From Perna viridis (Eukaryota): DNA of 64,000 bases. Below the pieces are notes generated by a model. The model was not told the origin of the DNA. It did not search any database and worked only from the letters and a program-made list of their open reading frames with translations. Both the position numbers and the translations under genes were made by a program. Every line of letters begins with the position of its first letter. The first letter of the stretch is position 1. This document shows, in pieces, positions 10,940 to 38,075 of this stretch. The stretch covers positions 310,001 to 374,000 of the forward strand of contig CM074522.1 of assembly GCA_037379345.1 (NCBI GenBank). The letters are read 5' to 3'.

Positions 10940-13900
10940 GTAAGTGTACGCTGTAGTCTTTAGAGTAGTTCTATGTCATATAGTTCACAAAGGAAGTCTA
11001 TGAACCCGTCCATCAAGTAAGTTTATATGCTAGTCCACAGAGTAAGTCTATTTTCTTGCCGACTAAGTATTCCTGTAATGGATCCAGAAATTTATAAAAA
11101 AAAAAAAAAAAAAAAAAAAAGGTATATTTATACTGGCTATCCATAGCTCAATTTTCCCCAAATATTGTAGAGAGCCTTCCAACAAAAGGATTCCCAAACC
11201 CTGACACCCCCACTAGTATCTTCCAATGTGTCCACAGAGTATTAGCTCTACTTTACAGAGTGCATATTTTAGTCAATAGTGATCCTGTGTTCTCGTCCTT
11301 GGGTACTTAAATGTGTTGGTCCACTTATTAAATGAAGCTGTGTTCAAGTCCACTGAGTTAGTCAATGCGCTGGCTTACAGAGTAATTCTATGTTCTAGTC
11401 CACAGCATACTCTAGCCCATGGTATTGGACTATGCAAGTAAGCGGATGCTCTTGTCCATAGCGTTAGACTGTGCTCAAGTCCACAGAGTTGCCCTATACT
11501 CTAGTTAGCAGAGTAAGTCAATGTTCTTGTCCACAGAGTAAGTCTACTCCCTAGTCAATAGTCCACAAAGTAAGTCTATGCTCTAGTCCACGGAGTAAGC
11601 CATCTCTCTAGTCCATAGAGTAAGTCTTTGGTCTAGTCCGCAAAGTAAATCTATGCTCTAGTCCACGGAGTAAGCCATCTCTCTAGTCCACAGAGTAAGT
11701 CTTTGGTCTAGTCCACAGATTAAGTAAACGTTCAAGTCAACAGAAAAGTGGATGCTGTAGTCCATACAGTTAAACTATGCTATAGTCCTAGTACATGTAT
11801 TTCACACTAAACTGTTGAATTGTGTATTAGTTTAATTTTATTGATTTTCAATTATAGTAATAGAGGTTGACGTAACAGGAGTTGACGATGGTCCGGAGGA
11901 GATGTTGGACTACAAGGTACAGGTCATCAACGTGTTAAGGGTAAGCATCCGAAAACTAGGAATTCGTGTTGTTTGTCTGTCATTTTGTTAACAAAACATT
12001 ACCCAGTTTATCCGTGATTTGTAGTGATTTTGATAGTAGAGCAAGGATACTTAGTCTAGTTTCTTTATATTTTTAAAATACATATTATGGCGACATTTAT
12101 GGGGCAGAATTCTTTTATGTCGTCGGTTTATTGAGTAAAACTTATCTATCACGTCAGAAATAAGACGTGATGTCTATGACTTCATCAAAGTTTTACCATG
12201 GCTGTAGTCTCAACGCCTTTAAAGGGCGTCATGCATGTATTAGAAATGTATTATAATGTCAAATAAGCTTCTATATGATGGTAAAACATATGTGTTAAGC
12301 CTAAGTTACTATGTTAACTATTGAAATTTTATGGTAATCATCTCGATTTGATTGTTCCATATTAATTATTTTGTTAGATCAAACTTACCGGATTGACAAC
12401 TAGTCGAACTCTCCGCCTGCCGGATTTTACTTGCAATGTACATTTGCATAAAATGAAATTATTTCACTACCATGCATTGATGTTTTTTCTGTCGGCCATT
12501 TTTGGGAAACATTTTTGTACAGTACATAATATGAAATTTTAGAGATTCAGGAAAGAATCAGTTCAATTTAATTCCAAAATGAAAGTTTTTCATAACAGGA
12601 AACAGAAATTAAACAAAACAAACAAATAACCGAAATAAAATATTGTGATTATTGTGGTGTTCATTTGCATTAGTATTTCAAAATGATTGTTCTAGATTCA
12701 CATTCAGCATCTATATTCCTTTGACCTCTCAACTGCCAAAAATACCGACCTTTGGTAACAATTAAACCTACTGGAACTCTTCTATTTCAGGGTAGCTTAA
12801 ATAAGGAACAAAATAAAGGATCTGTGTTGGTTCCCCTTGCTGAACCACCGTGCTATGAGGACTTTATTATGGAGAAAGGACAAAAATATGTACTCGCCGG
12901 TATTGTTATATGTTATTGGACTATTTTTTTCCTGTCTAGTTTTCGATTTATTATATTTTTTTATTCAAAAATACAATAAAAAGTCCACAGTACAAGATAC
13001 TGTTACTGTTGATAATGAAAATTAATTACTGTAATTATCGACAGTCAAATATTGTTACTGCTATTGTTGACAATAAAAATCGTTACTCTGATTGTCGACA
13101 ACAATAATTCGTACTGCTATTGTCGATCGTATATATAGAAATACCACTCATATAAATATTGCAAATTTTATTTTGTTGTTGTGCCTGTCCCAAGTCAGAA
13201 ATTTCTGGCCTCTGTATGTCTTGTTTCGGTTTCACTCTCAGATTACTTTTATGCTGCCGGAGTATATAAGCTCAACTATTTCGTTGCACCTGTGTATAAT
13301 GTTGTTTTATGGCCAGCTGCAGCCTGCCCAATGGTATGAGAGTTTCCTCGTCGTTTGTTGAAGACCCATGGGTAGCATTGAGCTGACATTTTCCATCCTG
13401 GTGGGATTGTTGTTTCTTATATACATTCCCTTTATATTCAATGAGTAACATCTTATCAGCAGCGTTATAACCAAATACTTAGGAAGTTTTAGATTCAGAG
13501 ACAGGAAACCAAATACAGCATCGTTATATTTTTGTCGACAGTAAAAGATCGTTACTGTTTTTGTAGACAGTAAAATATTGTTATACATGTACTGTTTTTG
13601 TCGACAGTACAAGATCGTTACTGTTTTTGTAGACAGTAAAATATTGTTACTGTTTTTGTCAACAGTGAAATATTAAGTTACACGGATTGTACTCTTATTC
13701 AAACTTCAATTTTGTGTTGAAAATTATGGAAATTCATATAGTGGTTCAATTTCTTGTCATTGTACTGTCCTGTCATCAAGGTGTATCTCTAAAGAAACTC
13801 TAGATAAGTTTTATTAATTACATTTTTTTTTATTTTAAGTATTGACAATGAAATCAGTTACATGTTTTGAGTTACTGGCTGACATGTTTTTTTAATTAAA

Positions 13901-14032
13901 CTTTTTTTTCTTTTTCCTTCAGTTGACACAATTGGATCTTATATGGTTTTGAATCATTGTAATTTTGCTGCAGACGTTCGAGATTTGACAAGTATAGAGA
14001 GGACTGCGATCATTAACGGGTGCTACAAATAG
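10807..14032 (+). CDS. TIMP: Spliced gene, join(10807..10939,11858..11940,12791..12899,13923..14032): 144-aa secreted TIMP-like (NTR/TIMP N-domain only) protein
   Basis: GT-AG introns in phases 1,0,1 give a 435-nt open frame: MLLTGTLALLVLLIPNAELCECDAKDKEWLQGKLVPKSLCTSPQIIEVDVTGVDDGPEEMLDYKVQVINVLRGSLNKEQNKGSVLVPLAEPPCYEDFIMEKGQKYVLAVDTIGSYMVLNHCNFAADVRDLTSIERTAIINGCYK*. It has a hydrophobic signal peptide, CxC, six Cys (20,22,40,93,121,142) and motifs IEVDV (VIRAK-like), YKVQV, GQKYVLA, CNF..LT..ER. The symbol denotes the family, not a specific orthologue. Confidence 0.88.
10925..11790. repeat. Degenerate ~25-bp minisatellite (ctagtccacagagtaagtctatgct) overlapping the TIMP exon-1 donor
   Basis: Many tandem copies; interrupted by a polyA-containing MITE-like remnant at ~11073-11228. 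Confidence 0.85.
11858..11940 (+). CDS. TIMP-like coding exon 2
   Basis: ttttcaattatAG| ... AGG|GTAAGC; encodes IIEVDVTGVDDGPEEMLDYKVQVINVLR. Confidence 0.88.
12791..12899 (+). CDS. TIMP-like coding exon 3
   Basis: tctatttcAG| ... GCCG|GTATTG; encodes GSLN...PPCYEDFIMEKGQKYVLA (core of ORF 12752..12979). Confidence 0.85.
12995..13675. repeat. ~28-bp minisatellite (gttactgtttttgtcgacagtaaaatatt) in two blocks
   Basis: Blocks at 12995-13130 and 13520-13675. Confidence 0.75.
13165..13445 (+). mobile_element. Interspersed repeat (family B) interrupting a 28-bp minisatellite in TIMP intron 3
   Basis: 13310-13430 matches the reverse complement of 47960-48075. Confidence 0.65.
13923..14032 (+). 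CDS. TIMP-like coding exon 4 (terminal, stop TAG 14030-14032)
   Basis: Long pyrimidine tract tttttttctttttccttcAG|; encodes VDTIGSYMVLNHCNFAADVRDLTSIERTAIINGCYK*. Confidence 0.87.
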
Positions 14033-14469
14033 AGCAAGTCTGTAATCATTGACGGGTGCTAAAGATAGTGCAGGATTGTTTTATTCAAAATCTTATGACA
14101 TCTGTTTATTGTTTGTATATAAATTGTCATTGTAATGCAAAAAATATTTCACTTCATAAATAATTGACTAATTTTTTTCTTTCTTTTTTTATGTATTATC
14201 TTAATAACAAATCATAATAGAACCTATGGTAGAAAGACAATTGTTGGGTTAACACCACAGATTTTGACATGTCTTATTCATTATTTCATATATTTTAGTT
14301 GCACTTCATAGGTGTTCCCTGTAGGGGTGTGATATAGGGAATGCAATATAGGTCTAGGGTGTGATACATGTAGGGTAATCGATATAGGGTTTAAACAGTT
14401 CTTTATATCAATGACATATATTCACACTAAAATATAACTTTTTGTATATGCATTATATGTAATTGTTTA

Positions 14470-14865
14470 CACCCTATATTGCATACCCTGTATCACACCT
14501 AGATCTATATCGCATACCCTATATCACACCTCCAGACCTATATTCCATATCCTATATCACAACTCTAGACCTACATCGCATACCCTATATCACACCCGTA
14601 GACCTATATCGCATACCCTATATCACACCTCCAGACCTATATCCCATACCCTATATCACACCTCCAGACCTATATCACATACCCTATATCACACCTCCAG
14701 ACCTATGTCCCATACCCTATATCACACCTCCAGACCTATATCCCATACTCTATATCACACCCCTAGACCGATATCGCATACCCTATATCTCACCTCCAGA
14801 CCTATATCCCATACCGTATATGTATATCACACCCGTAGACCTATATCCCATACCCTATATCACGG
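14470..14865. repeat. 33-bp minisatellite (accctatatcacacctccagacctatatcccat)
   Basis: About 12 copies; inverted copies at 14323-14390. Confidence 0.95.
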
Positions 14866-15099
14866 TCTCAGGCTGATACTGCATGGAATACAGATTTCGA
14901 CACGTAATATTCAGTATATATATGCATGTAAAAACGACTATATCGTTTAATATTTGATATATGTGTAAATCTATAAATCAGCCGTATTTATGATGCCGTC
15001 CTCGTCTTATTCCATAGACACTCGGTGTCCTTAAAATAAAGTGATTATAAGTGTATAAACCCAAAGTTGCTATATCACAAAAATGGCTTGTATTGACTT

Positions 15100-15670
15100 A
15101 GGGGTTTGTGACTTGAACCTCTATATGATTTGGAAGCCAGAAAGACGTATTTTCCTAATGCCTGGTCAATTGAACGGATCTCTTTTAAATTGTACCACAA
15201 GTGCCTATACCACCACAGAAAGGCTTGGATTAATTTAGGAAGTTGTGAATTGAACTGTTTAGGAGTAAAAGGGGACCAAAAATAAACATTTTTCTGATGT
15301 TCTGACAATAATTTAACTATATAAGTGAATGAATCATTTTTAAATTGTACCACAAGCTGTCACACCACAACGGAAGACCGGGATCGATTTTGGGGATTGT
15401 GATTTGACAATAGGAATGAGTGGAGCAAAAACTGGACTATAAGTATACAATTTTGTTTCTTTTGTTTAGATAAATTTAAATGAATGAATCTTTTGGAACT
15501 TTTCAAGTGCAATACCACAAAAAAGAAACGGGCATTGAATGTTGAGGTAGTGACTTGGACCATCTTGGGGGAAAAAAAGCGAAGCAACAAACAAACATTT
15601 TCCTGATTTCTGGATAATAACTTGAATAAAAGTGAATGGATCTCTTTAAAATTGTACCACAAAGTGTAAT
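15100..15670. mobile_element. HINE-like repeat remnant with internal repeats
   Basis: Repeated ...aaattgtaccacaa blocks; similar to 52170-52500. Confidence 0.5.
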
Positions 15671-16042
15671 GCCACAAACTAAAAAAAGAACAGATATGGT
15701 GAAACGCAACAAATGCATCAGGGTATAACTTAATCACAAAATAGTAAATACTCAGAGATCACCAAAAGGTCTTAAACAAGTGTAAACAAACAAAGCCATG
15801 AAAGGCCATAAAATTCACTCAATAAAACATCCAATTCTTATTATGTAATACCTCAACATACATATTATAGACAAAATGAGATATCCACTTAAAAACGCTC
15901 ACAGTTACTGAAAGATTAGACAATATTATTATATACTAGTATTAGAAATGATCGGTTACTTCAATTCCAATTTGAATTTGACTTTGAATTTGGAATAGTA
16001 ATGTCAAGTACTAATGATTAATATTTGACGTAGTGCAATATT

Positions 16043-17089
16043 AAACAAAAGGCTCCCAGGAGCCTGAATCGCTCACCTTGTTAAATTTTTGCCTTTTAAG
16101 GGCAATAACTCTAACAAGAAGTTGTCAGACAATTTTGACTCCATTTGATTCATTGGATACATTTGTAAGCCTTATAATAAGGATCATTTCAGCAATTGAA
16201 AGCTATTGGCTAAGACTAACAGATCTGGAGATGTAGGCAAATATCTGCTGTCTGACCCCATTGTTCTATTTTAAAAAACGGCAGTCATATTTTTTTCATT
16301 TCGTTAAGGATACCCTATAAAACAAAAAATGTCAACTTTCATTGAATTCTGTAGAGCAGTTTCTGAGGAGAAGATTTTTTAAAGTAATAACATCATAAGC
16401 AGAAAAAAAAACGTCCAAAAAGGGCAATAAATCCAACATGGGTCAACAAATTTTCACCAAAATTTGACCACAGATAGATCTCTTCATGCTGAATGATTTT
16501 ACCCCAATGTCAGAATTCGGCTAAACCTAACGGTTTTGGAGATAAATGCGAAGAACTACTATCTGACCCATATGTTCTATTTTTAGTAAGGGTGGCCATG
16601 TTTTTCAACGGATCAAAAATCCTCACATCAGTTCTATGCACGATACCCGAAGAAACATTCATACCAAGTTTAGTTCCAATTGGTCAGGTGGTGTCAGAGA
16701 AGATTTTTGAACGAAATAACATTCAAAATAGCAAAAAAAAAACGTCGAAAAAGGACAATAACTCCAACATGGCTTAATAGATTAAAATGAAAATTTGACC
16801 GCAGATAGATCTCACCATGCTAAACGCTTTTACCCAGTCAGAAATTTGCTAAACTTAACGGATTTGGGGATATATGCGAAAAACTACTGTCTGACTCCTA
16901 CTTTTAGTAACGGCGGCCATGTTTTCCGACGGATCAAAAATCCCCATATCAGTTCTATGCACAATACCCCAAGGAACATTCATACCAAGTTTGGTTCAAA
17001 TTGGTCAAGTAGTTTCAGAGGAGAATAGTTGTGAAAAATTGTTAATGACGACGACGGACGCCAAGTGATGGCAATAGGTGAGCTAAAAA
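16043..17089. mobile_element. Helentron-type HINE with ~310-bp internal tandem units
   Basis: AACAA..CGCTCACC at the left end, (GAC)n..GGTGAGCTAAAAA at the right end, ~3 internal repeats. Confidence 0.8.
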
Positions 17090-17299
17090 TGACTTAGTTA
17101 AGTAGGGGTGCAATTTGAGGCAGAAAAATCTTTACTTGTGTAAACAAGGTTCACAGAATAGACAATAATTTGAAAATCGTATCTATATTAAAGACAGTTG
17201 ATAAATCTATCGGATTTTGTTTGAAATGCTGTGCTTTAAAGACAGTATTTCCGTACAAAACTGGTGAGCAACACCATTTTTCATTAAGAACCTGCAAGT

Positions 17300-17790
17300 G
17301 CTATAATATTTTAGTATCAAAACTTTTGTAACGGTGAAAAAAAAACTTTTCTGGAAGTTTGTGATATTAATACACCTGGTTCAAAAGCCTTTCAGTGAGC
17401 AATCTGTTGTGTTCATTAAAATATGATAATACTCTATGACAAATACGAGCAAAACAGACCAGTTCTGAAATGCAAATACCACAGGAGGGTGCTTCAGGAC
17501 ATTACTATCTAGGAATGGAAAATTGACATTAGGAAAATCAAAATCCTTGATCTCTTTTGTCATAATTTTTTGTATGAATGCTACCTTTTTCTAGTGTAAT
17601 ATCTAAATCAAGAAAAGGTGTACGAGCGCTATTGCTGATAGACTTTGTTAACTCTTTGGAGTATATATCTTGAACATACTGTTCGAAGTTTGGATTATTT
17701 ACGGTCTAGATATATAATCAAGGTATCAGAAAGTATCCTTAAATTCTCACAACTGGACATGTTTAGAATGAATTTAAAGAGTCTAGCCAT
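17300..17790 (-). mobile_element. Decayed Penelope-like (Naiad-type, inferred) RT fragment, a second family
   Basis: TF*YLDYI (degenerate YLDD), VNNPNFEQYVQDIYSKEL, PFLDLDI, NYDKRD..FDFPNVNFPFLDSNV. Confidence 0.82.
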
Positions 17791-18312
17791 GAACACTGAT
17801 TGTCACGCATCAGATATGAAAGAGGCACATTGAGTCCCTATTGGAATACAAAGTAAGACTTGGATCGCTTATTTTTTTTTTGGGGGGGGGGCGGGAGGGT
17901 GTTTCAGTTATGCACTATGTTTCAACTTCGACACTTATTAAGGAATGGTGTAGAGTCAGTTATTATGCATAATGCGTCATTTGTTTGTTGTAGTTTCTTA
18001 CATAAATTTACATTCAAAATAGTTGTCACACTTGAACTTTAAGCGAAATTCGCATGCATGAAGTTAATCAGTGTAGTATATTACGAAGTCCCGGAAAGGC
18101 CGGATGCAGACCATTTGAATGGGAGGGTGCCAGCCAATGTTCCTCAGAAAGTGGGGTGCGAGGACATTATTTGCTATTGTTTTTGTCTATTTAATTATTA
18201 AAAAACGTGGTGCTAACCCCTGCCCTCCTGTGATCCGCCACGGTCCTGAATTAATTAAGATGTAATTGATGGGGAGTATGGTGTTGTACTCATTTACACA
18301 TGTGCTAGGTCC

Positions 18313-18953
18313 GACAAACGCGATGACTCTTCATTCATGTCAATTTTCCTTTCATTTGTGGCAACATTCCTTCAACACCTGCATATGAAGTTTTCATGTC
18401 ACAACTCATACGTTATGCCACAGCTTGCCGTAACTACGCAGACTTTTTTTTCGCACTAGACTTCTCACAATTAGCCTCTGTAGCAGGCTTATGTTGCTAC
18501 ATGATTGAAGTCATCACTACAGAAATTGTATGGTCGTCATCATGAACTCGTGGATCGTTGCGGTGTATCCATCTGCACCATGAAAACTGATTTTTTTTCT
18601 GCGTGTCATAGTGATCCTTTCCTCTTTCGTCTACCATGGACTTGACTTTTATGAGCAACTCGGTATTTAAAGCAGAGGACACTTCACCTGCCGGTACACT
18701 TGGTCCATGCTCCCATGCAGTTTTTAGTGCAGTCCGTGTTGCTCATTTACTTTTGTTACTTGGTATGCATTATTTTGGTTTTTTTTTAAATTCTTTGTTG
18801 TATGTGTCAGTTTTTCATGTCAGATCTTTGTCCCTGATTACGTTCAAAACCTTGGTTCAGTGGATTACTCTTTGTAATGAGTTAGAATTAGAGTTACCCT
18901 TCTTGGGGTTGGTTTGCATTTAGAGCTTTAACCTTGGTTCCCTTGATTACTCT
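18313..18953 (+). mobile_element. Penelope-like element, RT C-terminus + 3'UTR (family A, copy 2)
   Basis: DKRDD..VNFPFICGNIPSTPAY..SQLIRYATACRNYADF; terminal segment duplicated near 18850 and 18930. Confidence 0.85.
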
Positions 18954-19084
18954 TACAGAAAATTTCTAACTTGAATAGTTTTACTGATTTTCTTATACTT
19001 CCATGTGGATGTTATAAGAATCAATGAAAAATAAAAAAAAAGAACTTGTAAGCAACAGGTACCAGGTCCGACATGCACATTTCG

Positions 19085-19155
19085 ATACACAATCAGCTGA
19101 TGTTTGACCTCAAGTTAGGTCACGGCATTATCCAATCGGATTTCACGTCACAAAT
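19085..19155 (+). promoter_or_regulatory. Putative promoter of a long + strand gene
   Basis: E-box CAGCTG (~19094), CCAAT (~19132) and CRE-like TCACGTCA (~19143) in a CpG-retaining patch just upstream of a strong donor. Confidence 0.45.
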
Positions 19156-19468
19156 AAAACTTGGTCTAAAAATATCACTTTTTCTTCACCTTCTTGGGAG
19201 TTGGGAATTTTGAATGAGAGTTCAAGCAAGGTCTGTATCGGATAATAGGGGAATATATGATTCTTTATTTTTCTATTTTCACGAATCGATTTCTTTTTCC
19301 ATCGGCGTATTCCACCGTCTTCTTGGTCAACTTCAAAATGACTCATTGCTTAGTTTATTGATTGCCAGTAGCCACCAAAACATGAAAATATTTTGATTGT
19401 TTTTTTTTTAGAAATCAGTGGATGATATTGGGAAATACACAAAGAAGTCTGTTTTCCTCTGGAATTCG
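19150..19468 (+). other. Putative first exon of a long gene that continues beyond the window (product unknown)
   Basis: TTCG|GTAAGT donor at 19469; CpG content drops sharply after ~19.6 kb; start approximate. Confidence 0.55.
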
Positions 19469-21559
19469 GTAAGTTGATGAAGTTTCATTTTAAGGTCCAA
19501 ATATTAAATATGAACCACTGTCTACAATGTTTCGTCCGAATTTCCTCAGGCCTCGCTATTATCCCTTTTAGGATACATGTACAGTGTCTGGAGCTGTTTA
19601 TGATTTGGCCGCCCATACATTGACACAGTCAAATAAGAAAATAGCTCCAGAAACTGAAGCCTTACAATATGTTGACTTTGGATCAGAGGATTTTGCCATC
19701 CATGTACAAAAAATGGATTTTTTTTGTGGTAATGTGGATTAATACACTTCAAATGCTTCAACCTGTTCAAGCAAATTTCCAGTTGAAACCATGCATGTCT
19801 GACCAGATTTGATTTTAGATTCAATTTCCTGCATGGTTATAAGCACATGGGTACCATTATATACATGTAGACAGACGTATACCATATTCAGTACAGAGAT
19901 TTTATTTTTTTAATAGAGTTTCAATCATTCTATGTGATAACACTTTACATATGAAATTGGCAAGAGTTATTTCGGGAATAAAACATTAGCAGGCGTGTTC
20001 ATGTGAACAATTTGAAGAATTCAGTTAGATTCTGGTCTTCTAAATCGTGTTTGCTACCAATTTATTAGTAATTTTTACAAGTATTTTGAATGAGATACAT
20101 GTATCAGACCTAAATGTCAGATACACAATGTATGTGTGATGTCATGTTCCATTTGTTTGTGGAAGACATAATATTTGAAAATCCCAGATATTCTTCCATG
20201 GTCACTATTCCAGGCTGGAAAATCAGTAAATTGTATCTGGGGCTCTAACCCACAGTGGGGTCAACCTTTTGATTTTAAGTCCAGCACCTTAACTATTGTG
20301 CCTTCTTGCCCCTATATGTATATCATGGAAAGCACATGTAGTTTAAATGCAAGTACATGTACATCTTGTATTACATATAATAATGAATAAGATGATACAG
20401 ATTTACATAACAATGAAACATGATAAATAGTCCTGGTAAATAGTAATCTGCAAAATCATCATCCACATTTTCAGTAGAAAGTTACATGTACATGTACCTG
20501 TCAAGTTTTTCTCATTCTCAGACTTTCAGCATGAGGTTAAAGATATGTTGACTGCTTGCTAAATTTATCTGAACAATATTTTGTTCATTAGTAATACTTT
20601 TTGTACTTTGTACATTTTGCACATGTGTGCATTCTTTGGTACATACATGTATGTACATTTTGTACGCGTGTTGGTTTTTTGGTCTATATACATGTACAAT
20701 GTAGATATATGTATGTACTGTTTAAGTGAAAGGTTTTTGTGTTTCCATCAAGCATTGACATTGAATTATGCTGGAGTCTTACAATTCCTAAACTCACCCC
20801 CTAATTCTTAATCCATGTTGACTTGATATTTAAGTCTTCCATTATCGCTTAAGAAGGTCAACTTCAACACAACAATTCCTTGATTACATGTACATGTAAT
20901 TCATAATTTGTTCTTGTCAAAGTTCAGCAGATGTTTAAGGTCCTATACAATATGTATAGTGTTTAGTCACCACTTGGTCATTTAAACATTTTTTGAAGCA
21001 GTTGCATGAGCAATATAAATTTACCACAAAAATATTAACTAAGTTATATAAATAATAAATAATGTCATTCTATTTTTGTATCAGAAATATTCATTCTGAC
21101 CTGAAAACTTGAAAAAAAGATTTGTACAAGGTAAACATTAGTATCTTTGTAAACATGTACATGTAAAGTCATCATAGAACAGGAAATAGTAAGAATGACC
21201 AGTTTTTACATGGTACAATGTATGAGTATTCTTTATATTTCAAAGTTCATTCTAAGGTACATTGTATAACATAAGTAGAAATCCCCCTGTCTGTCTGTCC
21301 ACATATCTTGTTCCTGACAAGTTTTTACATGGTGCAGTACATGTATTTGTATGATTACATGTATTTTCAATGTTACATATACACCTGTACATATATAAAT
21401 GAACAATTGTATGTATTTAATTGAAAATTGTTGCTACTTACACTGTTTTTTTTAATGTTCTATATTGTATTATCTTAAAGTGATTTGGTATTGTCAAATC
21501 AGCTTTTGTTTATGTGTTGTGTTGTTTATTTTTAATTTCTAGTAGATAAAGTTTTTGTG

Positions 21560-21642
21560 TGTGAGGGCCTCAGGGAAGATTAGCTGGTAAACTAACTGTG
21601 TAACCCTCTTGAAATAAGATTTTATTATTATTATTATTATTT
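21560..21642 (+). mobile_element. LINE/SINE 3' terminus with (TTA)n tail
   Basis: Stem-loop-like gaggg...ccctc, then aataag and (tta)n. Confidence 0.45.
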
Positions 21643-23109
21643 AATAGAAAAAATGAACAGATATGGTGAAACACTATCATATCAATAAAAAAGTAAATAC
21701 AGAGATCACCAAAAGGTCTTCAGTAAGTGTAAACTCTGAAAGGCCCTGACAACAAAAGTAAACAGAATAATAACACTTCTTCCACAAAAAGTCAACACAG
21801 ACAGAGTAATGACCAACATCTTTGGACAGGCACATGTAAGGTTGATTTTAAGGTTGATATTTGAGTCATGAATATCAGCTTTTCACAAAAAACATATATA
21901 TAACAATCAAAACATTAAATTTGAAGGCTTTACGTGTTCTTGGGTTTATAAAGAAGTTCACTGCTTTGTGTTATATTTATCATGCAAAAATTTTATATCA
22001 TATTTTACAGTTGAGTGTTCCAATGATAACATGAATATAAATGTAAGAATCAGCATGACAAGGTCATTATATTTTCTATATTGTAAAATCATGAAAGATT
22101 TAATCAAAAATTTAATTTTAAAAACTGTTAATGGCCCATGAATTTATAATTCTTTGTCAGAAAGTAAAATATTAATAGCAAAATTCACCAAGGGAAGTCA
22201 AATGGAACTTGGCCTTGGTATGACCTTTGGCCTTTTCACTTTAACTTAGATACATGTACATCCTATGGAATATCAGAATTATTGTAGTTGAAATCAAGTT
22301 ATTTATTCAATATTAAAATGAATAGTTTCCATATTTCCATAATAACACTTACATCACATAAAAAAATATTTGTACAGGTCAAGAAAGTACTGACCTTAAT
22401 GGGTCAATTCCTTACTGCAGGATGTAGACTTGCATGTACACAGATATTGTTGGTATAGCATGCTGTATCTTAAGTTATTCTCAAATTTTTTTTGAAAGGA
22501 GAGTTTTACTTTGTAACTAATTGAAACAAGTTCAAATTTTTGGAGAAAACACAGATATATAATATTGTGGAATATTAAATAACCGTTTTTGGTAGACATT
22601 GGTGTGATTGCTAAAAGTGCTTTAGCTGGACCTCACCTTAAGGGCCACAACAGGAGGATGTGAAAGTCGATTTGTCTCCCTCAAAAAATAATATGGACAG
22701 AAGCACAGTTGAATTTTGTAGGGCGATCAACAGGTCCATATTATTAATTGTAATTTGACCCAAAGTAACATGAACTATTTGCTATATTATCCCTTTTTCA
22801 TATAGTTTACTCTGGATCATCAGTGTAGAATAAAACACAAACTTAAATTATGAGGTCATGTTCTTAATTTGAAAATGAGAGGTCCATATAGTTTCCTACA
22901 GGTCCATATAAGTTACGACCTTATATGGTCTGACAGTTATATTCCAGAAAGTAAACAAGTAAAACTCTTGAAAATATAATACTGACTCTGTAAATGTATT
23001 AATTTTTGCTGTGTACTAAGCGTGAAAAATAGTACTTGCAAAATTAATTTTTAACACTAAGTACATGTAACACTAATTTTTTTTAAACTGCGAACGTTGA
23101 TACCTGCAA

Positions 23110-23725
23110 TTGTGTCCACTTGACTGAATCCACTAAAATTACAACCCCAAAAATTAATACACTGATATGCCATGAAGACCTCACCATATCTCCTTATTGT
23201 TTAGTTGAGAAAGAGTGACAACACAATCTTCACCAATATAGCATTGTGTGGAAAATTTTAGAAAATGATTGTGAGCCATGTAGCTTTACAAGGTCTTAGA
23301 GATACATGTACATGTATAAAACCTATTAAATTTCAGCTTTTAATCTTAGGGAGCCCTTCATAGAAACTATTTGATCTTTAGTTGTAATGTTTGGCCTGTT
23401 GAAAAGTTAGTCATGTGTCCACTTGACTGAATGATAGAATCTGCTAAAATTAGCAACCTGAAAATTAATACACTGATATGCCACGAAGACCTCACCATGT
23501 GTCCTCATTGTTTAGTTGAGAAAGAGTGACAACACACTCTCCTCCAACACAGCATTGCTTGAAGAATTTAAAAAAAATGATTGTAGGTAGTGTAGCTTTA
23601 CATATATTTATAAGATCTTACACATACATGTATAAAATCTCAGCTTTAAATCTTAAAGAACCCTTCATGGAAATTATTTGATCTTTTGTTGTAAAGACTT
23701 ATGTATGGTCTTTTGAAAAGTAAGT
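23110..23725. repeat. Tandem duplication, ~310-bp unit x2
   Basis: tgtgtccacttgactgaat... begins at ~23111 and ~23414. Confidence 0.85.
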
Positions 23726-26449
23726 AATGAACATCTATTGTACAATGTAGTTCTAAATCTGTCCAGCATTTTAGACATGCAAATATTTCCTTAGCTTCAG
23801 TATTTAAAATGTCTTATACTCCAAAGAAACAGCAAATGTGTAATTGAATTTAAGTACAGATAAGTTAAAAGATGTGAAAATCTCCAACAGAAAATTTCCT
23901 ATCCACCTATTTCTAACTGTTACCAGCTGTTATTTTGTTTATGTAAATTTAGGGTGAGACCAGATATACAAATGTATTTATAACCTGAGAAGTTTGTAAT
24001 TGAATTTGGGTGGTGGTACCCTAAAATAAATGTTTGATGTCACAAATCATACTAAACTTTACATGGATCATGCCAAGCCAGATTAAAAGGTACAACATAT
24101 TCACTTCAGATTGAATCTACTTTAATTATAAAGTTTTTACTAGTTGACTGGGTATGAGGAAGATACTAAAAGTTATTTTCCAGGAGGTACAACTATTGCT
24201 ATAAACTTAATATTCCCTGAATATACATGTATAGTCAGTAAGTATTTTATTATGCCATTTGTATACTGAAAGAGACAACATACTGTATCTCAGGACCAGT
24301 AGTCACACACAGTCATATTTCGTTTTACCTTAAGGAGACAATAGGTACGCAAATCCACCTGCTGATTTGCACCGTTCATGATGTTTCTGAAGTTTGACTG
24401 AAATTTGAAATCTCTGGATTAAGTTTTGAATAACCATCAATGTAGAGAATTTCGAATGGAGTGTTAAAAACGTAGCCAGTCCCGTAAATGCAATGCAAAT
24501 TCAGTGAAATATAATTACAGTTGTGGTTAAATAGTTTCAGGGAGGGCAATAGTTAGGTAACTTTTGACCAGTCAATTGTCTTATGGTGCGTAACTTGTCA
24601 GAACAGTAAATTTATTCACATAAATTTTGTAAAGAAAATGTATACTGAGGTATAATAATATTCTGTACTGTATTCTTTTTCAGACCAACCCCATATCTCA
24701 GTAAAATGAATGATACACATAAAACTCATTCCCATCATTGGACATCTTTACTATTTAGGAATTTACATGTCACATTAATATATAGAGGTTTCTATGGAAT
24801 TTCAGTCCAGAGGCAATGACTTTACTACCTCTTCCCATCCCACCCCTGGTTGTTAATGGTACCACCTTGTCAATGTCAATAGACCTTTTATTTTAGTTTT
24901 AAACACAAGTAAAACTTATCCAATCTTTTTGAAATTTTTACATATTGTTCCTAGGAACATGGGGGAGGGCCCTATAGTTTTTGTAGGTTTTTGCTTCACC
25001 CCATATGGAAATAAGGGGCTGAAAGGGGGAAAATAGGCCTTATTTTTAGAATTGATAGAAAAAGTTAATTGATGACCTAATTTTTATGATTAAGATTTCA
25101 ATCTGTTCCTTTTGAAATTCTTTAAAGGGTAGGCTTATTCTAAACAGTGTTGGAGTTACATGTAAAGGGTACAAAATTCATCCTGGCCTAAAAAAAAATC
25201 AACTTTTTTTATTTTTGGTCCAATTTCAGTTTTTTTTTTCAAATCCATCCCATTATAAAATCTCTGCCTACATTTTTCAATCAGATTTCAGATATCACTT
25301 ACTGTTTCTTGATATAAGGGGTTTAAGGGGCCACACCCAAAAAGTCTACTTTAAATTTAATTTTTGTCCAATTTGGAAAAATTATTTTCTTATTGATTCT
25401 TTATGAAATTCCCTGCCAGCAGTTTACAATCAGATTTCAGATATATCTTTCTGTTTCTAAGTAATAAGGGGTTGAAGGGACACACCCCAAAAAATCAACT
25501 TCTTTATTTATGTTCCAATTTTGAAAAAAAATCTTTTTATTGGATTCATTTTGAAAATCTCAAATAATTCATACAAAAAGCTCAGTTTTCAGCACTTTTC
25601 ATGTGAACAAATTATGAATGAAGTTTGCATTCTGTTCTATTCTGGTAGGGGATTTTGAATTGCCATGCAATACTTTCAGTATGCTTGTTAGATTGTCTTT
25701 GTTAACAGTTCCAGTATTGGATTGTATGAGAATCAATATACCTGTAGTTCCACTAATGAGTGCATAAATTCCCATGGACAATTTGATATATCAGCTGTTA
25801 ACATTTATAGTTGATTTAAGGTAATATTTTACAAGGTAAATGATTTAACTTCCCTTTTTCTGTCACAGAATGAATCATCTCCAGTTATTCATTGGCTAGG
25901 CTGGCCTAACAGAGTATAAATATACCCTATGCAGACCTAAGTTAGGAAGGCCAAATTACGATGTATTATTTAATCATCTGTGGACTAGATAGGGTCAACA
26001 TTTTTATTACTATGTCTAATGTCATGCAAGTACTTTATAGACTAAAAATAGGATTCTAATTGACAATTACATTTTATCCAAGATTAACTTGGACTTTTTA
26101 GACACATGTTTAAAGTAAAGAACTACCTAGTGTGTTTTGTGTGCAGTCAATACCTGCCTCTCTATTTAATCATAATATTCTGGATCTTCTTGGTACAGTA
26201 TGTATAATGTACCCAAGACAAAAATGGGGATTTGACTTGAAGTTTTATGGGCTGACTTAGCTTCAAATTTATGGCTCATCAATATATGTACATGTATTTT
26301 GAAATTGAAATGCAAACACCCATTCTAACTTCCTTGCAATGCTAATCGAAGTATATGGAAATAAATGTGTTCATCTTTTAATGGCATGATATATTGATGT
26401 ATTTTTATCATGTAAAATGGTACTGATTTGACAAACTATCGATGAATGA

Positions 26450-27315
26450 GTTACATGTACAAATGTTACTTCCCTCAAGTCTGTACTGATATATCCCTTT
26501 TCTGATAACATGTACAAATGTTACTTCCCTGGAGTCTATACTGATGTCTCCCTTTTCTGATAACATGTACAAATGTTATTTCTCTCAAGTCTATACTGAT
26601 ATCTCCCTTTTCTGAAAGCATGTACGAATGTACTTCCCTCAAGTCTATACTGATATCTCCCTTTTCTGATAACATGTTCAAATGAACTTCCCTCTAGTTT
26701 ATACTGAGGTCTTCTTCTGATTACATGTACAAATGTTACTTCCCTCGAGTCTATACTGATATCTCCCTTTTCTGAAAGCATGTACGAATGTACTTCCCTC
26801 AAGTCTATACTAATATCTCCCTTTTCTGATAACATGTTCAAATGAACTTCCCTCGAGTTTATACTGAGGTCTTCTTCTGATTACATGTACAAATGTACTT
26901 CCCTCAAGTTTATACTGAGGTCTCCCTATTCTGATAGCATGTACAAATGTGCTTCCCTCGAGTCTATACTGATATCTCCCTTTTCTGATAACATGTACAA
27001 ATGTGCTTCCCTCGAGTCTATACTGATATCTTCCTTCTCTGATAACATGTACAAATGTACTTCCCAATAGTCTATACTGAGGTCTCCTTCTGATAACATG
27101 TACAAATGTACTTCCCTCGAGTTTATACTGATATCTCCCTTTTCTGATAACATGTACAAATGAACTACCCTCAAGTTTATACTGGGGTCTCCTTCTGATT
27201 TCATGTACAAATGTACATGTACTTCCCTCAAGTCTATACTGAGGTCTCCCTCTTCTGATTAAATGTATAAATGTACTTCCCTTGAGTATACTGAGGTCAA
27301 CCTCTTCTGATTTCA
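26450..27315. repeat. ~55-bp minisatellite
   Basis: catgtacaaatgtacttccctcaagtctatactgatatctcccttttctgataa, ~15 copies. Confidence 0.95.
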
Positions 27316-28744
27316 TATGATGGATTCAGAGTAGGATGGAGGACACATTTGTCATTCCCTGGGAATTCAAAAAATATATATGTTTTTGCATGAAATCTTG
27401 ATTTTTTACATATTGTACCCCCTTTTCGCCTAAAATCCTTTATCAAAATAAGAAGAATACTTTTGCAGGGTCATTTAACCCCTAAAATAATTTGATTATA
27501 CTTATTTCCACCTCTAACCTGAAAATCCACGACCTCCATGTACATGTTAACTGAGGCTGTCTATGGTGACCTTGACTGACTTTATTTTTCTCTGTTAGGT
27601 GACATTCTATTGATTTATAAAGAATTACAGATCACACATCAAAACAATTATTATCTTATAATTTATCAAGAATGATGTTTTCGGACCTCATCCTAGTGGT
27701 CACATGCCTTAAAGTTTTACAAATATGAAGGCACTGCATGAGTCATATAAAAATTTGGTTAATGACATATACAATCTAAATACAGAAATTTTCACAAATA
27801 CACAACTCAGTTCATTATTGATTAAAAATGATCTATTATCAATCGACAAAAAAATACTGATCACACAATATGATATTACATATATAAGCTGATGGATTAT
27901 CATACTATGACGCAACCACAGAGGTTACATAGGTAATACCTTGTGGTTTATTTGTAAACACAGGTAAAAGTGCATTCAGGTAATTTTGTTTACATTGGCG
28001 TATGTAGGTGTGTTATCCATGTGTTCATATGCAACAGGTTGCATGTATTGGAATTTTTAGGTCAACATATTTTGTAGGTTTACTTTCGGTGTAGATGGAC
28101 TAGTAGTGGTATTAGGTAACTATTGTTATTTTGGTTCATTTCTTAGGTACCACAGTAGTTAAGAGAATATTTTTTTTTAAATATAATAATTTAAAGTGAT
28201 ATGCTTATTGATTTGATGAATAATTTATGTTAGTCTGGATATGGAGTTATTTATCATTGTTAGCGATCATTGCGGATACAATATCTAATATTTGTGTGAA
28301 AGCTATAAGGAAGTTAAATAACATGTATGAGTATTGATTGTAGTGGTTAACTGCATTCAAAGGCATGTCGGTACTTATTATGGTGAATTATATATAACTC
28401 TTTATTGTCCTTGCCTTTCTTGATTGAAATATTTGTCTCAACCACTGGTAATGATTCCTAAGGAATTTTGACTTCTCATATTGATATATTGATGAAAGAA
28501 TGGGCAGTGCAGAGGTATATTGGATGGAAAAGAGATGGAACAAGAGGTAGGGAGCTGTGAATATAAACTTTGTACATGTTTCCTTAAGTCTAGTCAAAGT
28601 GTGATCAAATATAATTCAAAGAATCATGTTGCTTGTTTCAAATTGATCTTAGATTTTAAAATTCATATCCAAAATGCTCTCAAGTGCTCAAACTGAAATT
28701 CTAGATACAGAATCGTATAGGAATAATACCAGAAATGGATCTGG

Positions 28745-29774: not shown

Positions 29775-30910
29775 CTGGTCACAACCTTCTCTTCACTTTA
29801 TGTCATTGTATTCTTGGTCACTGCCTTCTCTTCACTTCATGTCATTATATTCATGGCCACCATGTTCTCTTTACTTTGTTGTTGTATTCTTGATCACTAC
29901 CTTCTCTTTACTTTATGTCATTGTATTCTTGGTCACCACCTTTTCTTCACTTTATGTCATTGTATTCTTGGTCACCACATTCTCTTGACTTTATGTCATT
30001 GTATTCCTGGTCACCACATTCTCTTCAATTTATATGATTGTATTCTTGGTCACCACATTCTCTTCACTTAATGTTATTGTATTCTTGGTCACCACATTCT
30101 TTTCACTTCATGTCATTGTATTCGTTGTCACCATGTTCTCTTCACTTTATGTTAATGTATTCTTGGTTACCATGTTCTTTTCACTTTATCTCATTGTATT
30201 CGTGGTCACCACATTCTCTTCACTTTATGTTATTGTATTCTTGGTCACCACATTCTTTTCACTTCATGTCATTGTATTCGTTGTCACCATGTTCTCTTCA
30301 CTTTATGTTAATGTATTCTTGGTTACCATGTTCTTTTCACTTTATCTCATTGTATTCGTGGTCACCACATTCTCTTCACTTTATGTTATTGTATTCTTGG
30401 TCACCACATTCTTTTCACTTTATCTCATTGTATTCATGGTCACCACATTCTCTTTACTTTATGTCATTGTATTCTTGGTCACCACATTCTCTTCTTTTTA
30501 TGTTATTGTATTCTTGGTCACCACATTCTTTTCACTTTATGTTATTGTATTCTTGGTCACCACATTCTTTTCACTTTATGTTATTGTATTCATTGTCACC
30601 ATGTTCTGTTCACTTCACTTTATGTTATTGTATTCTTGGTCACCACGTTCTTTTCACTTTATGTTATTGTATTCGTTGTGACCATATTTTCTTCACTTCA
30701 CTTTATGTCATTGTATTCTTGGCCACCACATTCTTTTCACTTTATGTTATTGTAGTCATTGTCACCATATTTTCTTCACTTCACTTTATGTTATTGTATT
30801 CTTGGTCACCACATTCTTTTCACTTTATGTTATTGTATTCGTTGTCACCACATTCTCTTCTATTCACTTTATGTTATTGTATTCGTGGTCACCACATTCT
30901 CTTCACTTTA
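29775..30910. repeat. 39-bp minisatellite
   Basis: ggtcaccacattctcttcactttatgttattgtattctt, ~28 copies. Confidence 0.95.
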
Positions 30911-31184
30911 TTTAATGGTACATCATAGATAACTATTTTTTTTATATAGACTACAAGTTAATTTTCAGAAACTGTTGTTCTTCAAGTATCTTATTAAACA
31001 AGAGTAAAATTGACAAATGAAGCAGCACAAATACATCAGGGAAACCAATCCCTTTTACAAAACACTTTTGTAAGAAAATTCTGTGCCCTAAACATCTCAC
31101 CAATATTTCCGCCACGTCTTTAGAGGACCACTGTTGATAGTGGTTGAAATAAGAAAGTTTTTGAAACTGGTCAGGTAGGCAACA

Positions 31185-32530
31185 TTTACTGAAACAACTA
31201 AGCCCGTACAGTGAAGTTAACTGAAACAGAACTAGCCCGTACAGTGAAGTTTACTGAAACAGAACTAGCCCGTACAGTGAAGTTTACTGAAACAGAACTA
31301 AGCCCATACAGTGAAGTTAACTGAAACAGAACTAGCCCATACAGTGAAGTTTACTGAAACAGAACTAACCCGTACAGTGAAGTGTACTGAAACAGAACTA
31401 AGCCCATACAGTGAAGTTTACTGAAACAGAACTAGCCCGTACAGTGAAGTTTACTGAAACAGAACTAGCCCGTACAGTGAAGTTAACTGAAACAGAACTA
31501 GCCCGTACAGTGAAGTTTACTGAAACAGAACTAGCCTGTACAGTGAAGTTTACTGAAACAGAACTAACCCATACAGTGTAGTTAACTGAAACAGAACTAG
31601 CCCATACAGTGAAGTTTACTGAAACAGAACTAAGCCCATACAGTGAAGTTAACTGAAACAGAACTAACCCGTACAGTGTAGTTAACTGAAACAGAACTAG
31701 CCCGTACAGTGAAGTTTACTGAAACAGAACTAACCTGTACAGTGTAGTTAACTGAAACAGAACTAGCCCGTACAGTGAAGTTTACTGAAACAGAACTAGC
31801 CCGTACAGTGAAGTTTACTGAAACAGAACTAAGCCCATACAGTGAAGTTAACTGAAACAGAACTAGCCCATACAGTGAAGTTAACTGAAACAGAACTAAC
31901 CCGTACAGTGAAGTTTACTGAAACAGAACTAACCCGTACAGTGAAGCCTTTATAGTGAAGTTAACTGAAACAGAACTAGCCTGTACAGTGAAGTTTACTG
32001 AAACAGAACTAACCCGTACAGTGTAGTTAACTGAAACAGAACTAGCCCATACAGTGAAGTTTATTGAAACAGAACTAAGCCCATACAGTGAAGTTAACTG
32101 AAACAGAACTAACCCGTACAGTGTAGTTAACTGAAACAGAACTAGCCTGTACAGTGAAGTTTACTGAAACAGAACTAACCCGTACAGTGTAGTTAACTGA
32201 AACAGAACTAGCCCGTACAGTGAAGTTTACTGAAACAGAACTAACCCGTACAGTGTAGTTAACTGAAACAGAACTAGCCTGTACAGTGAAGTTTACTGAA
32301 ACAGAACTAACCCGTACAGTGTAGTTAACTGAAACAGAACTAAGCCCATACAGTGAAGTTAACTGAAACAGAACTAGCCCATACAGTGAAGTTTACTGAA
32401 ACAGAACTAGCCCGTACAGTGAAGTTTACTGAAACAGAACTAAGCCCATACAGTGAAGTTAACTGAAACAGAACTAACCTGTACAGTGTAGTTAACTGAA
32501 ACAGAACTAACCCGTACAATGAAGTTTACT
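31185..32530. repeat. 33-bp minisatellite
   Basis: tactgaaacagaactagcccgtacagtgaagtt, ~40 copies. Confidence 0.97.
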
Positions 32531-34390: not shown

Positions 34391-35505
34391 GTAGGACTAC
34401 TATTCCATGTATTCATTAAATTATACTGGAAAAACAACAAATAGAATCAAAAATTGATATTACAAGGTATAAGCTTCCAGGTGGAGCCGAATCCCTCCAA
34501 CAGGTCTACTGACTGTCTAAATAATCATAGACTGTTACAGGAGCTATAACATTTTTGTACAATTTTGCTTTTCTATATTATGGGGAAATAAATTAATCTT
34601 TGTATCAAACTGTATTTCTTTGAATGTTTTTTGGGAATCATTCTGTAGTTTCTAGGTAAAATCTGTTTTCCTCTTGACGTCCAGGTCAAATATACACACT
34701 GGCTAGTGGTGTAATTGAACTATCTTTGTCAAGTCATTCAGGTCAAATTGTTGGAAATTGCTAGAAGTTTATTAGTCTGAACTACATTCTCATTGGATGA
34801 TAGATTTTTCCTTTTAAGCTGATTTTAATATTGTTCATACAAACATTTTCATCAATGGCAGATATTTTTTTTCTAAACTGTCACCCTCATTTGCAAATTG
34901 CTGCTTTGGTTATTTGGCGAACAGTTTTATCCAATCACGAGTACTCAACACAGCGCAAAATTGTACAAAGAAATTTTAATGCTGGACTGGAGCTTGTACG
35001 AATAATCCATTTGAAAAGTCTTTCAAATTTAGTTTAAAACAAAAATGGTGCTCCTGTATTTGAGGTATTTCCAGGGTGAACAGGACTCTCATTGCACTTG
35101 GATAAGATTATGTTAATGGATTCTTACTTTCATAATTGAATTTCATTCAGAGTTATTTATCTTTGCACATTTCCTGATACAGCTAATAAGTTTCCAGTGA
35201 TATTGTTTGACTGAAATATTAAGGGCTTTCCATAATGAAAGTTTCACAATTTGTTCAAATTATCCCAAATAAGATAAATTATTTCTCAATAGATAGGTAA
35301 GATACCGGATATAGTGTTTCTGTTAAATATTACACTGATTATCTATTTATTACTTGTCCTTTTTCTAACTGCAAATTCAAGATTTGTAACATTTATATTC
35401 AAATTTCTCAATCTAAAAGAATGACTTATATGTTCCCAATTTAAAGAAGATGGGGTAGTTTTGAAATAAAGCCAACAATATTAATGTATAATGACAAATT
35501 TATTT

Positions 35506-36070
35506 TAAAGAATAATCAAGGGAACCAAGGTTATAGCGGTAATCAAAAGAATGTAATCCAGGTACAAAGACCAGACATGGAAAAGAGACATACACAACAA
35601 AGAACATAAAGTAGCTAACATCATATGTACAAACTAACAAAAGTAAATGAGCAACTCGGACTCCACTAAAAATTGGGAGCATGGACCAGGTGCACCAGTA
35701 GGGTAAGCGTCCTCTGCTTTTCTAGAAACACCCGCCGAGTTGCTCATAAAAAGTCAAGTCCGGGGTAGACAAATGTGGAAAGGAAAACTATGACCCGTTG
35801 AATAAATCAGTTTTCATGGTGCTGATGGATACACCATAATGATCCATGAGTTCATGATGACGACCATAAAACTTCTGTAGTGATGACTTCAATCTTGTAG
35901 CAACATAACCCTGTTCCAGAAGCCTATTTGTTAGAGTTCTAGTGCGATACAAAAAGTCTGCGTAGTTTCGGCAAGCTCTGACATAACATATGAGTTGTAA
36001 TATGAACACTCCATATGCAGAAGCCAAAGGGATGTTGCCACAGATGAAAGGAAAGTTGACAATTCTGAAT
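35506..36070 (-). mobile_element. Penelope-like element, RT C-terminus + 3'UTR (family A, copy 4, best preserved)
   Basis: ORF 35788..36096: IVNFPFICGNIPLASAYGVFILQLICYVRACRNYADFL...QGYVATRLKSSLQKFYGRHHEL. Confidence 0.88.
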
Positions 36071-37859
36071 AAAAGATAGCAGTGTATAACAAACACTTTA
36101 CAACTTCCCTCATATTATATATAGTACTATATAGTTATAATACCCCTACTCGACAAGTGGATGATATATTGGAATTATCAATACCCCACCCAACAAATGG
36201 ATGGTGTATTGGAATCATATTGTCTATCCTGTTATTTATACCTCTGTCTGAAGCCTGGAATTCCTAATTATTTTTCCAAATAGACAGCAGAATTCCGAAT
36301 ATTATTCCAAATTCAGCTTGAAATTTTCATCCAAACCCTTAATTTTGGGCTGAAAATTCATTTTCAGTTTGGAAAAGTCAGAATACTCTATACTTAAGTT
36401 TCCGACCTAAAAGTTTGGAATCTCCTGCTGCGGGTTACCTCCATCTGAATTTCAACATTATTATTTAGGCTTCCAATGGATAAACTGATTTCAGATGGTT
36501 GTGTGGCTTTATTTAGATGCAGCATACATTGTGATTGATTTTGGGTGATCTTCTATATCAGCTTCATGTTTCATGGGACATTGCCATTTTTTAATACACA
36601 AATTTTTGTTCCGAAAATCTCGGCTGCCAATCAGCAATGGATGGAATTATTTCAAAAATTGGTGATGTGACTTTTGAATAGATGGGTAATATGTTTTAAG
36701 CAATTTTGTCATCATTTGATTTTGTCAAGCATGGGTCAAGTAAATGCATTACAATTTGGAAATTTGACTATTTTTGGCAGATCATGGCACTATGATGGCC
36801 CATAATACTCTGTAGAGGACAAGCTATTTTATCAATATTTTTAATTTTTAATATATTGTATCTTATATGTATGCTTCAATTCTTGACTTTCAGTCATTGC
36901 AAACTTTGACTTTTAAATAAAAAACATATTCAGAAAAGTAGTATAGATATTGAACTATATATTTCTCATTGAAGGTCACGACTTACTGATATTCGAATAT
37001 CAGATGACCCCCTGTAATTACTGGCTAATTTTTTGATAGTTCTGATGTTGATGTGTCAAAAATTATAAACATAATAAAACTATAAGTTATCAAATGAACA
37101 GATAAGATTTCTTATCCTAATCAAGTTGGAAATGTCAATTCATGCCTGAAGTGGGCAGAGTAATTAGACCCTATATGACTTCACACAGTGGGGAAAAATT
37201 GTCAATCAGCATGTTTTAGAATCATAGCATTAAGATTATAACAATTGTATATATTGTTTCACATAGCATTTTACACCCATACAAGAAATATAAAACTTAT
37301 GGTATGAAATAACCAATTATCAGATTTAAATGTTTTTATGATTCTTTTGTTGTGTAAAGTGACAAATGGTTGATTATTGTTAGTCAACATTTAGATAACA
37401 GCCAAGATTACTCAATGTTATTTAAATATATCATAGTGATAGCATATAGTTCCAATCAGAAATGATTCCTTGATTTTGGGGCAGAAAATTCTACATATAA
37501 CTGTAGAGGCCAAATTTTATTTGAATATTTAGTTTAATACTCCATAACAAATCTACCCTAGTTATCCTCAATATGGTAATGAAAACTATGATGAAAAAAA
37601 TTCTGGAAATCAGAAAAAAGGGCAACTAGTATTGGGTCTTGCAAAGTAACTAACATAGTGTGAACTGAACTTAATATTTTTTATTATTGATGATACTTGA
37701 TCTGTTATGATTGTTAAATAGTTTTGTGTATACAATTAATGTTAGGATTAAGATCTTTGATTCTAATGCTGCTTGTTAAAGGTTACTCCTTGAAACATGT
37801 GTAAAGAGCATATCATAACTTGCAATATTTACAATTGGTATTTTTTTTTTATGACTGAA

Positions 37860-38075
37860 TGAATTACAGCAACTACAATGATGAAAGTGAAGGGATTAAT
37901 TTTGTCTTGCCTTGAATTACAACAAGTACAATGATGATGTTCAAGGGATACATGTATATTTTGTCTTCCCTTGAGTTACAGCAAGTACAATGATGATGTT
38001 CAAGGGATAGATTTTGTCTTCCCTTGAGATACTGCAAGTACAATGATGATGGTCAAGGAATAGATTTTGTCTTCC
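37860..38075. repeat. ~52-bp tandem repeat x4
   Basis: caagtacaatgatgatgttcaagggatagattttgtcttcccttgag. Confidence 0.85.

Follow-up and report, generated by a model that had tools for sequence, protein, structure and literature searches.

The palindrome TACATGTA occurs 43 times in a stretch of 64,000 nucleotides of the Perna viridis genome (GenBank assembly GCA_037379345.1, 723 Mb in 46 contigs; contig CM074522.1, positions 310,001 to 374,000, G000:C12:310001-374000 in our coordinates), which we refer to as the window. Order-2 and order-3 Markov models predict only 3.6 and 5.4 copies, respectively. We analyzed how this excess arose, and argue that it most likely represents six-letter additions at TA dinucleotides, left behind by excising transposons. 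The window is AT-rich (GC content approximately 0.33) and abundant in minisatellites. A Pfam scan of 150 of its 748 open frames of at least 35 amino acids returned nothing above the cut-off, and frames of at least 100 amino acids lie mostly within repeats. The 43 positions, hereafter called scars for brevity, group into 38 runs, five of which are doubles. The individual features are the following.

2816 to 11799: TACATGTA at another ten positions, the double at 7613 among them; the DNA here is richer in CpG
7613 to 7626: double run, TA(CATGTA)2
13584 to 13591: TACATGTA, +8 relative to three siblings reading GTTACTG (TA becoming TATACATGTA), a non-canonical, compound event
14365 to 14372: TACATGTA, +4 relative to TGATATAG siblings, which have TATA there, non-canonical
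14819 to 14826: TATGTATA, +6 relative to siblings with one TA in that register, newly found
19400 to 27400: scar-dense block, 25 positions, 13 of them in 5.7 kb of unique DNA, CpG observed/expected ratio (O/E) 0.18
20483 to 20496: double run, TA(CATGTA)2
20885 to 20898: double run, TA(CATGTA)2, newly found
23303 to 23316: double run, TA(CATGTA)2, whose duplicate copy at 23625 has a single word; the alignment is ambiguous
23625 to 23632: TACATGTA once, in the second of two copies of a local duplication of approximately 320 bp
27214 to 27221: TACATGTA in a 54-bp array, +6 relative to AAATGTACTT siblings and +5 relative to AAATGTTACTT siblings
27400 to 55700: scar-free block, 0 positions in 18.2 kb of unique DNA (Poisson P-value 7e-4) and one in a minisatellite, CpG O/E 0.16
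37949 to 37956: TACATGTA in one repeat unit of a minisatellite with a 53-bp period, a clean +6 at TA relative to three of three siblings, with one G/T difference and no duplication of the flank
55816 to 62951: TACATGTA at another five positions, the double at 62618 among them
62618 to 62631: double run, TA(CATGTA)2

A first interpretation of the window from its letters alone (the sequence-only reading) had described the palindrome as very frequent across the whole stretch. Its frequency stands, and the interval from 13584 to 37956 by itself holds 28 positions (P-value approximately 1e-20 or smaller). The word is not evenly spread, as 37 positions lie within 1 to 27.3 kb, one within 27.4 to 55.7 kb and five beyond. 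The iterated runs that it had named at 7613, 20483, 23303 and 62618 are all present, together with the one at 20885. It had also read five positions as insertions relative to sibling repeats. The +6 at 37949 holds against all three siblings and is the sole clean, non-slippage change of TA into TACATGTA among the five. The +8 at 13584 and the +4 at 14365 were recovered against their siblings as well, and both need a second step beyond a plain footprint. The site at 14819, when read together with the preceding TA, is one transition off the motif and is a probable decayed scar.

The excess over the Markov background extends to a genome sample of 140 stretches of 10 kb from 15 large contigs (1.4 Mb). 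The sample contains 464 TACATGTA sites (O/E 6-7), and the z-score of the word is the highest among all 8-mers. Two tandem-repeat loci, L046 and L070, were retained among these 464 sites and among the 72 aligned sites described below, and were left out of the density, flank and age counts. Without them and with the window included, 457 sites compare with 63-64 expected, so that approximately 14% of the sites are expected by chance; the extrapolated genome excess is an estimated 199,000 copies. When identical contexts are collapsed, the O/E of TACATGTA is 5.4, compared to a median of 0.98 for the other TA-NNNN-TA words, the runners-up being those with CCGG (2.1), CCGC (2.0) and CTAG (1.8) between the two TA. 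Locus L070 (G000:C4:48000001-48010000) is a young tandem array with a period of approximately 1.67 kb, whose unit carries five TACATGTA that were copied along with it, and locus L234 has nine TACATGTA in 3.5 kb.

We performed an all-against-all alignment of the genome sample and the window, in which repeat copies act as alignments of one another. A first run covered 72 of the 507 TACATGTA sites, 50 of which are common to their homologs (30 of these in one young tandem array). Where the homologs lack the word, the net difference is +6 at 8 of 22 sites. Among controls of the same composition it is +6 at 5 of 865, and among other TA-NNNN-TA words at 9 of 552. A second run with higher sensitivity examined 1.86 Mb with 578 motif runs and used 2,500 control sites out of 14,984. 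It covered 114 motif runs, and ten of the 32 informative ones showed a net +6. At seven of these 32, half or more of the homologs have a plain TA instead, which holds for only 2 of 248 controls (P-value 4e-6), one of them being the probable decayed scar 14819. The polarity is given by the homologs with plain TA, which are 26 out of 26 at L103:4688, six out of eight at L164:1797 and five out of nine at L157:9363. The sequence-only reading would be refuted, by its own account, if local slippage explained all cases, which it does not: neither six of the seven exact cases nor 37949 have a slippage template in the flank, and the remaining exact case, L153:7424, is compatible with slippage. Insertions of CATGTA at TA are therefore in strong excess, and these comparisons indicate that TACATGTA has often arisen via the addition of six letters to a plain TA. 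Since the added CATG is constant whatever the flank, it probably derives from outside the site.

Candidate donors reside in the same genome. Profile searches returned at least 89 matches to HTH_Tnp_Tc3_2, at least 113 to DDE_3 and at least 118 to DDE_1. Among the best 30 of the at least 89 HTH_Tnp_Tc3_2 matches, we identified three Tc1-like families whose ends read CAC or CAG directly after TA. Two of these three have intact frames of 346-347 amino acids with DD34E spacing, and copies that are 96-100% alike. About a third of 30 DDE_1 (pogo-type) loci have CAGT ends after TA within the stretch examined. Empty homologous sites show a single TA, for example in the flanks of L192, L200 and L128, confirming that resident elements duplicate TA upon insertion. 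The letters of the scar match the terminal CA...TG of the Tc1 DD34E families and of the DDE_1 loci, and the label 'Tc1/mariner', used in the sequence-only reading, should be broadened to include pogo-type families. A de novo scan returned approximately six plausible inverted-repeat pairs with CAG after TA in 1.46 Mb, and the two longest of these elements have no long open frame. No single very abundant miniature inverted-repeat transposable element with CA after TA was found among the 30 largest repeat-end clusters listed, whose ends are TTAA or other.

Other observations concern the transposons themselves. At L200 (G000:C7:13096242-13099520) a shorter copy of Tc1 family A lies at a TA inside a copy of the same family, and other copies have the empty site. 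A 1,676-amino-acid open frame at L227/L234 (G000:C12:8261321-8268637) contains two DDE_1 matches and is possibly a domesticated or fused pogo-type gene. Inverted-repeat elements with CT after TA are present at L043, L054 and L244. In the 140-locus sample, TACCGGTA and TACTAGTA are mildly enriched (O/E 2.1 and 1.8), with A at -3 raised. Other transposon families may therefore leave scars of their own.

The scars bear the target preference of the elements in their flanks. Over 856 scar half-sites, A reaches 0.49 at -3 (background 0.35, z 8.3) and G reaches 0.27 at -1 (background 0.18), while T drops to 0.21 at -1 (background 0.33) and C is at 0.20 at -4. Control words have a flat profile. The profile of 98 element ends (A 0.69 at -3, T 0.18 at -1) correlates with that of the scars (r 0.80), and 39 pogo-type ends share with the scars the G at -1 (r 0.75-0.78). 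The CATG that precedes the second TA of a scar itself provides C at -4, A at -3 and G at -1. Because scars bear the TA context favoured by elements, they would be targeted again, as the sequence-only reading had proposed. Whole-genome pattern counts agree with this expectation: element ends lie straight after TACATG in 13 of 906, 2 of 267 and 3 of 35 cases, the last becoming 2 of 33 once a duplicate is collapsed. Pooled, 17 of 1,206 ends are inside scars compared to 4.3 expected, a 4-fold excess (P-value 3e-6). Doubles account for 29 of 428 runs (approximately six are expected from local density), the corresponding figure for other TA-NNNN-TA words being 21 of 12,183. The whole genome contains 10,017 doubles, 263 triples and a few longer runs, and the TA-bounded register is 3.6-fold more frequent than the reversed one (10,017 and 2,746, respectively). 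Slippage may contribute to doubles, yet it predicts no register.

The density of scars depends on the age of the DNA that hosts them. When repeats are sorted by best-match identity, scars are absent from those at 92-100% and increase to 0.055 per kb at 86-92%, 0.15 at 80-86% and 0.19 below 80%. Unique DNA contains 0.39-0.40 scars per kb, compared to 0.07 in dispersed repeats. Words one mismatch away from TACATGTA are also in excess, transitions (O/E 1.5) more than transversions (1.1), and their total is approximately 0.8 of the exact excess. Scars therefore accumulate with the age of the host repeat and decay mainly via transitions. This suggests a mean scar age near 0.1 substitutions per site. 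As this exceeds the age of the two young Tc1 families, these families cannot have made most scars. Density is over-dispersed (chi-squared 361, 131 degrees of freedom). Across 132 loci it is not significantly associated with CpG O/E (rho -0.17, P-value 0.05), nor does it correlate with GC content, minisatellite or repeat fraction.

The composition of the region shows features of its own. CpG drops abruptly near 20 kb of the window, and the dense and the scar-free block, both CpG-poor, adjoin. Over 136 loci, CpG O/E per 10 kb is bimodal, with peaks at approximately 0.2-0.3 and 0.7-0.9, as mosaic methylation would give. Minisatellite arrays are concentrated in the CpG-poor half of the window, the large ones being at 26453-27282, 29776-30911, 31185-32530 and 57088-59909 (periods 54, 39, 33 and 28). 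Two short stretches on the forward strand look by eye like exons and have no Pfam hit: a frame at approximately 10825-10955 with a hydrophobic, signal-peptide-like start that ends at GTAAGT, and a second stretch at approximately 11875-11965 that ends at GTAAGC. On the reverse strand, a frame of 108 amino acids (35788-36114) lies between inverted repeat copies near 35640 and 38700, and resembles a fragment of a non-long-terminal-repeat retroelement reverse transcriptase.

Five of seven footprint features of ITm (Tc1/mariner/pogo) elements are found here. These are a net insertion at TA with TA on either side, added letters that do not copy the neighbouring sequence (27214 is an exception), the terminal letters of resident elements, their target flanks and the TA duplication that they make upon insertion. 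The spectrum is unlike that of nematode Tc1 or Sleeping Beauty. We favour, with a probability of roughly 0.8, that the excess of TACATGTA consists of six-letter additions at TA that are excision footprints of resident Tc1- and pogo-type elements with CA...TG ends. The excess of CATGTA insertions, the element ends with their TA duplication, the matching flanks and the re-targeting all support this explanation, and from them we infer the excision step. An element would enter a TA and duplicate it, as the empty homologous sites show for resident families. The transposase would then excise it with a cut that, judging from the sequence of the scar, falls 2 nucleotides inside the 5' ends, so that two letters per end would stay as non-matching 3' overhangs. 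A 2-nucleotide stagger is mapped for one family member, ISY100 (PMC2170065). For Tc1/mariner transposases in general, the cut in the non-transferred strand is described as lying a few letters within the element, with end-joining leaving 2-4 terminal letters (PMC6943129). As two CA overhangs are unable to pair, germline end-joining would fill in both and ligate them into TA-CA-TG-TA. Such a scar would be nearly neutral, reach fixation and then decay by point mutation, consistent with the age gradient and the excess of transitions. Its TA sites have the favoured A at -3 and the G at -1, and would attract further elements, in agreement with the 4-fold excess. Doubles may build up through this re-targeting, with slippage possibly adding to them.

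Other explanations account for part of these data. The excess is hardly likely to stem from replication slippage, or from chance words that grew into a (CATGTA)n microsatellite. Slippage is compatible with L153:7424, with the perfect duplication of ATGTAC at 27214 and possibly with 23303, and both the surplus of doubles and the few longer runs would fit it. However, the lack of a flank template in six of seven exact cases and at 37949 already contradicts it as the source of single scars. Moreover, run length drops steeply (doubles are approximately 4% of singles, triples 2.6% of doubles) and runs preferentially start and end with TA. CpG deamination in methylated DNA, which would turn TACGCGTA-like words into TACATGTA by substitution, has a close to negligible probability. 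Nine of the 32 informative sites have a net difference of 0, some with TACACGTA partners, and the densest block is CpG-poor; substitution may thus supply part of the background, but it cannot add six letters. In addition, other NNCATGNN palindromes are under-represented (O/E 0.6-0.8), the link with CpG O/E is not significant, and a CpG-poor block of 28 kb has no scars in unique DNA.

It is very unlikely that the word is a transcription-factor site maintained by selection. Such a role has been proposed for Phytophthora motif-1, with homeodomains of the Irx type as candidates. The same word has been read in this way in an oomycete (PMC3520976), and the palindromic nature of TACATGTA, its clustering and its location mainly in unique DNA would fit. 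Selection would nevertheless leave its origin unexplained, even if some scars could be co-opted, and it does not predict single-copy TA insertions inside repeat copies, their steady rise with repeat age, transition-biased decay or transposon-type flanks. Finally, the letters of CA...TG ends could have been deposited other than by ordinary excision, via immediate re-excision, abortive integration, or a donor family that is extinct or was not found. We consider this unlikely. It would agree with an estimated 50 or more scars for every recognisable element, with the dominance of the +6 product without +4 or +5 excess, with the absence of a site both occupied and scarred, and with repeats more than 92% alike being scar-free over 92 kb despite the presence of young elements. 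Resident families, however, match the scars in ends, target and re-targeting. Furthermore, scars would outlast elements, so a high ratio between the two is to be expected from long turnover.

Several observations weigh against excision footprints of resident elements. The sequence-only reading had suggested that occupied alleles might be found at scarred TA. None was seen at the 42 of 156 element ends that gave alignments with non-occupied homologs (355 in total), a comparison of low power, and tandem duplicates and paralogs have no such pairs either. Footprints with +4 (TACATA and TATGTA) or +5 (TACAGTA and TACTGTA) are not enriched in the genome sample (O/E 0.94-1.2). For TACATA and TATGTA (O/E 0.94-1.1) this runs counter to the excess that had been anticipated, although a small one could hide in the 6-mer background. 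As many as 25 of the 32 informative sites are not exactly reducible to TA, nine having a net difference of 0 and the rest +2 to +14 or being badly aligned. Element ends are scarce beside scars, with 1,208 exact ends over three families and the approximately six pairs in 1.46 Mb. Tc1 family A has C instead of G enriched at -1 and zero re-targeted copies among 57 ends, and re-targeting by the pogo-type family alone is not significant (2/267, P-value 0.25). The blocky density has no explanation. The site at 27214, +6 relative to AAATGTACTT siblings and +5 relative to AAATGTTACTT siblings, is ambiguous: as it is a perfect duplication of ATGTAC, scar and slippage fit it equally well. The comparison of 23303 with 23625 is a weak case, as the +6 appears only if the alignment is anchored by eye on 13 upstream letters, and MAFFT puts the gaps elsewhere. 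The spectra of C. elegans Tc1 and Sleeping Beauty, described below, add to these points.

Public reads provide a view of the window in other sequences. In the tables of four runs (window 7400-26400), which high-copy repeats dominate, there is no CATGTA among the 12 indels listed. Long contigs from the four runs have 0-2 gaps each over the dense block (one record, for instance, shows 2 gaps across 11 runs). Most scars of the dense block are therefore probably shared with those contigs, although the records do not display the identity of the gaps and the best of them may be the source sample.

If the scars are footprints, past jumps become directly countable, datable and mappable, with an estimated 200,000 intact scars compared to a few thousand elements. 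Cut-and-paste transposition is usually gauged from the copies that survive, excisions being regarded as invisible. Footprints would also imply a germline repair outcome different from the nematode model and a steady source of 6-bp in-frame insertions. They would call for caution in motif finding, where a palindrome that ranks at the top as a 'binding site' may be a scar. More tentatively, and with the odds against the full proposal, germline breaks in this lineage may nearly always be closed by filling both overhangs, each visit leaving a uniform, self-attracting scar. Tens of times more numerous than the surviving elements, the approximately 200,000 intact scars would then form a datable map of transposase access to germline DNA. 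The blocks would reflect a state of chromatin or of selection for which CpG content does not account, and the same process would explain the excess of TACATGTA in many other genomes, including published transcription-factor motifs.

Among the literature matches listed, whose coverage leaves out most subscription journals, there is no report of genome-wide TACATGTA footprints. One of the closest known systems is Tc1 of Caenorhabditis elegans, which shares with the scars the TA target, the CA...TG ends and the same eight-letter product, and whose published target consensus CAYATATRTG (PMC9635669) is akin to their flanks. There, the taCATGta footprint is described as rare (PMC3520976, with reference to Eide and Anderson 1988), 78% of somatic footprints are +4, TATGTA or TACATA (PMC12632400), and germline breaks are repaired mostly by recombination or polymerase theta, making such scars rare (PMC4490562). 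In P. viridis, on the contrary, the +6 form alone is enriched, is inherited and numbers, by extrapolation, in the hundred thousands. Sleeping Beauty likewise leaves element-end letters between two TA after end-joining of 3' overhangs. Unlike the scars, its canonical footprints TACAGTA and TACTGTA keep three letters of one end (+5; PMC6943129), and these words have an O/E of 1.05-1.2 here. The TA-targeting pogo-family Passer and Tc1-family ZB leave 0-4 bp (PMC9976928) and 0-3 bp (PMC7913693), respectively, and the range of Passer would admit a four-letter filling of the CATG type. Their products are however mixed and were measured on plasmids in cultured human cells, with no fixed genomic record. 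Phytophthora motif-1 is the identical word, very abundant in non-coding DNA and read as a transcription-factor site, the footprint idea having been set aside untested (PMC3520976); in P. viridis the word is seen to arise by insertion at TA. The type of footprint is therefore already known, and what is added here are donors in the same genome, matching flanks, genome-wide counts of re-targeting and an age gradient.

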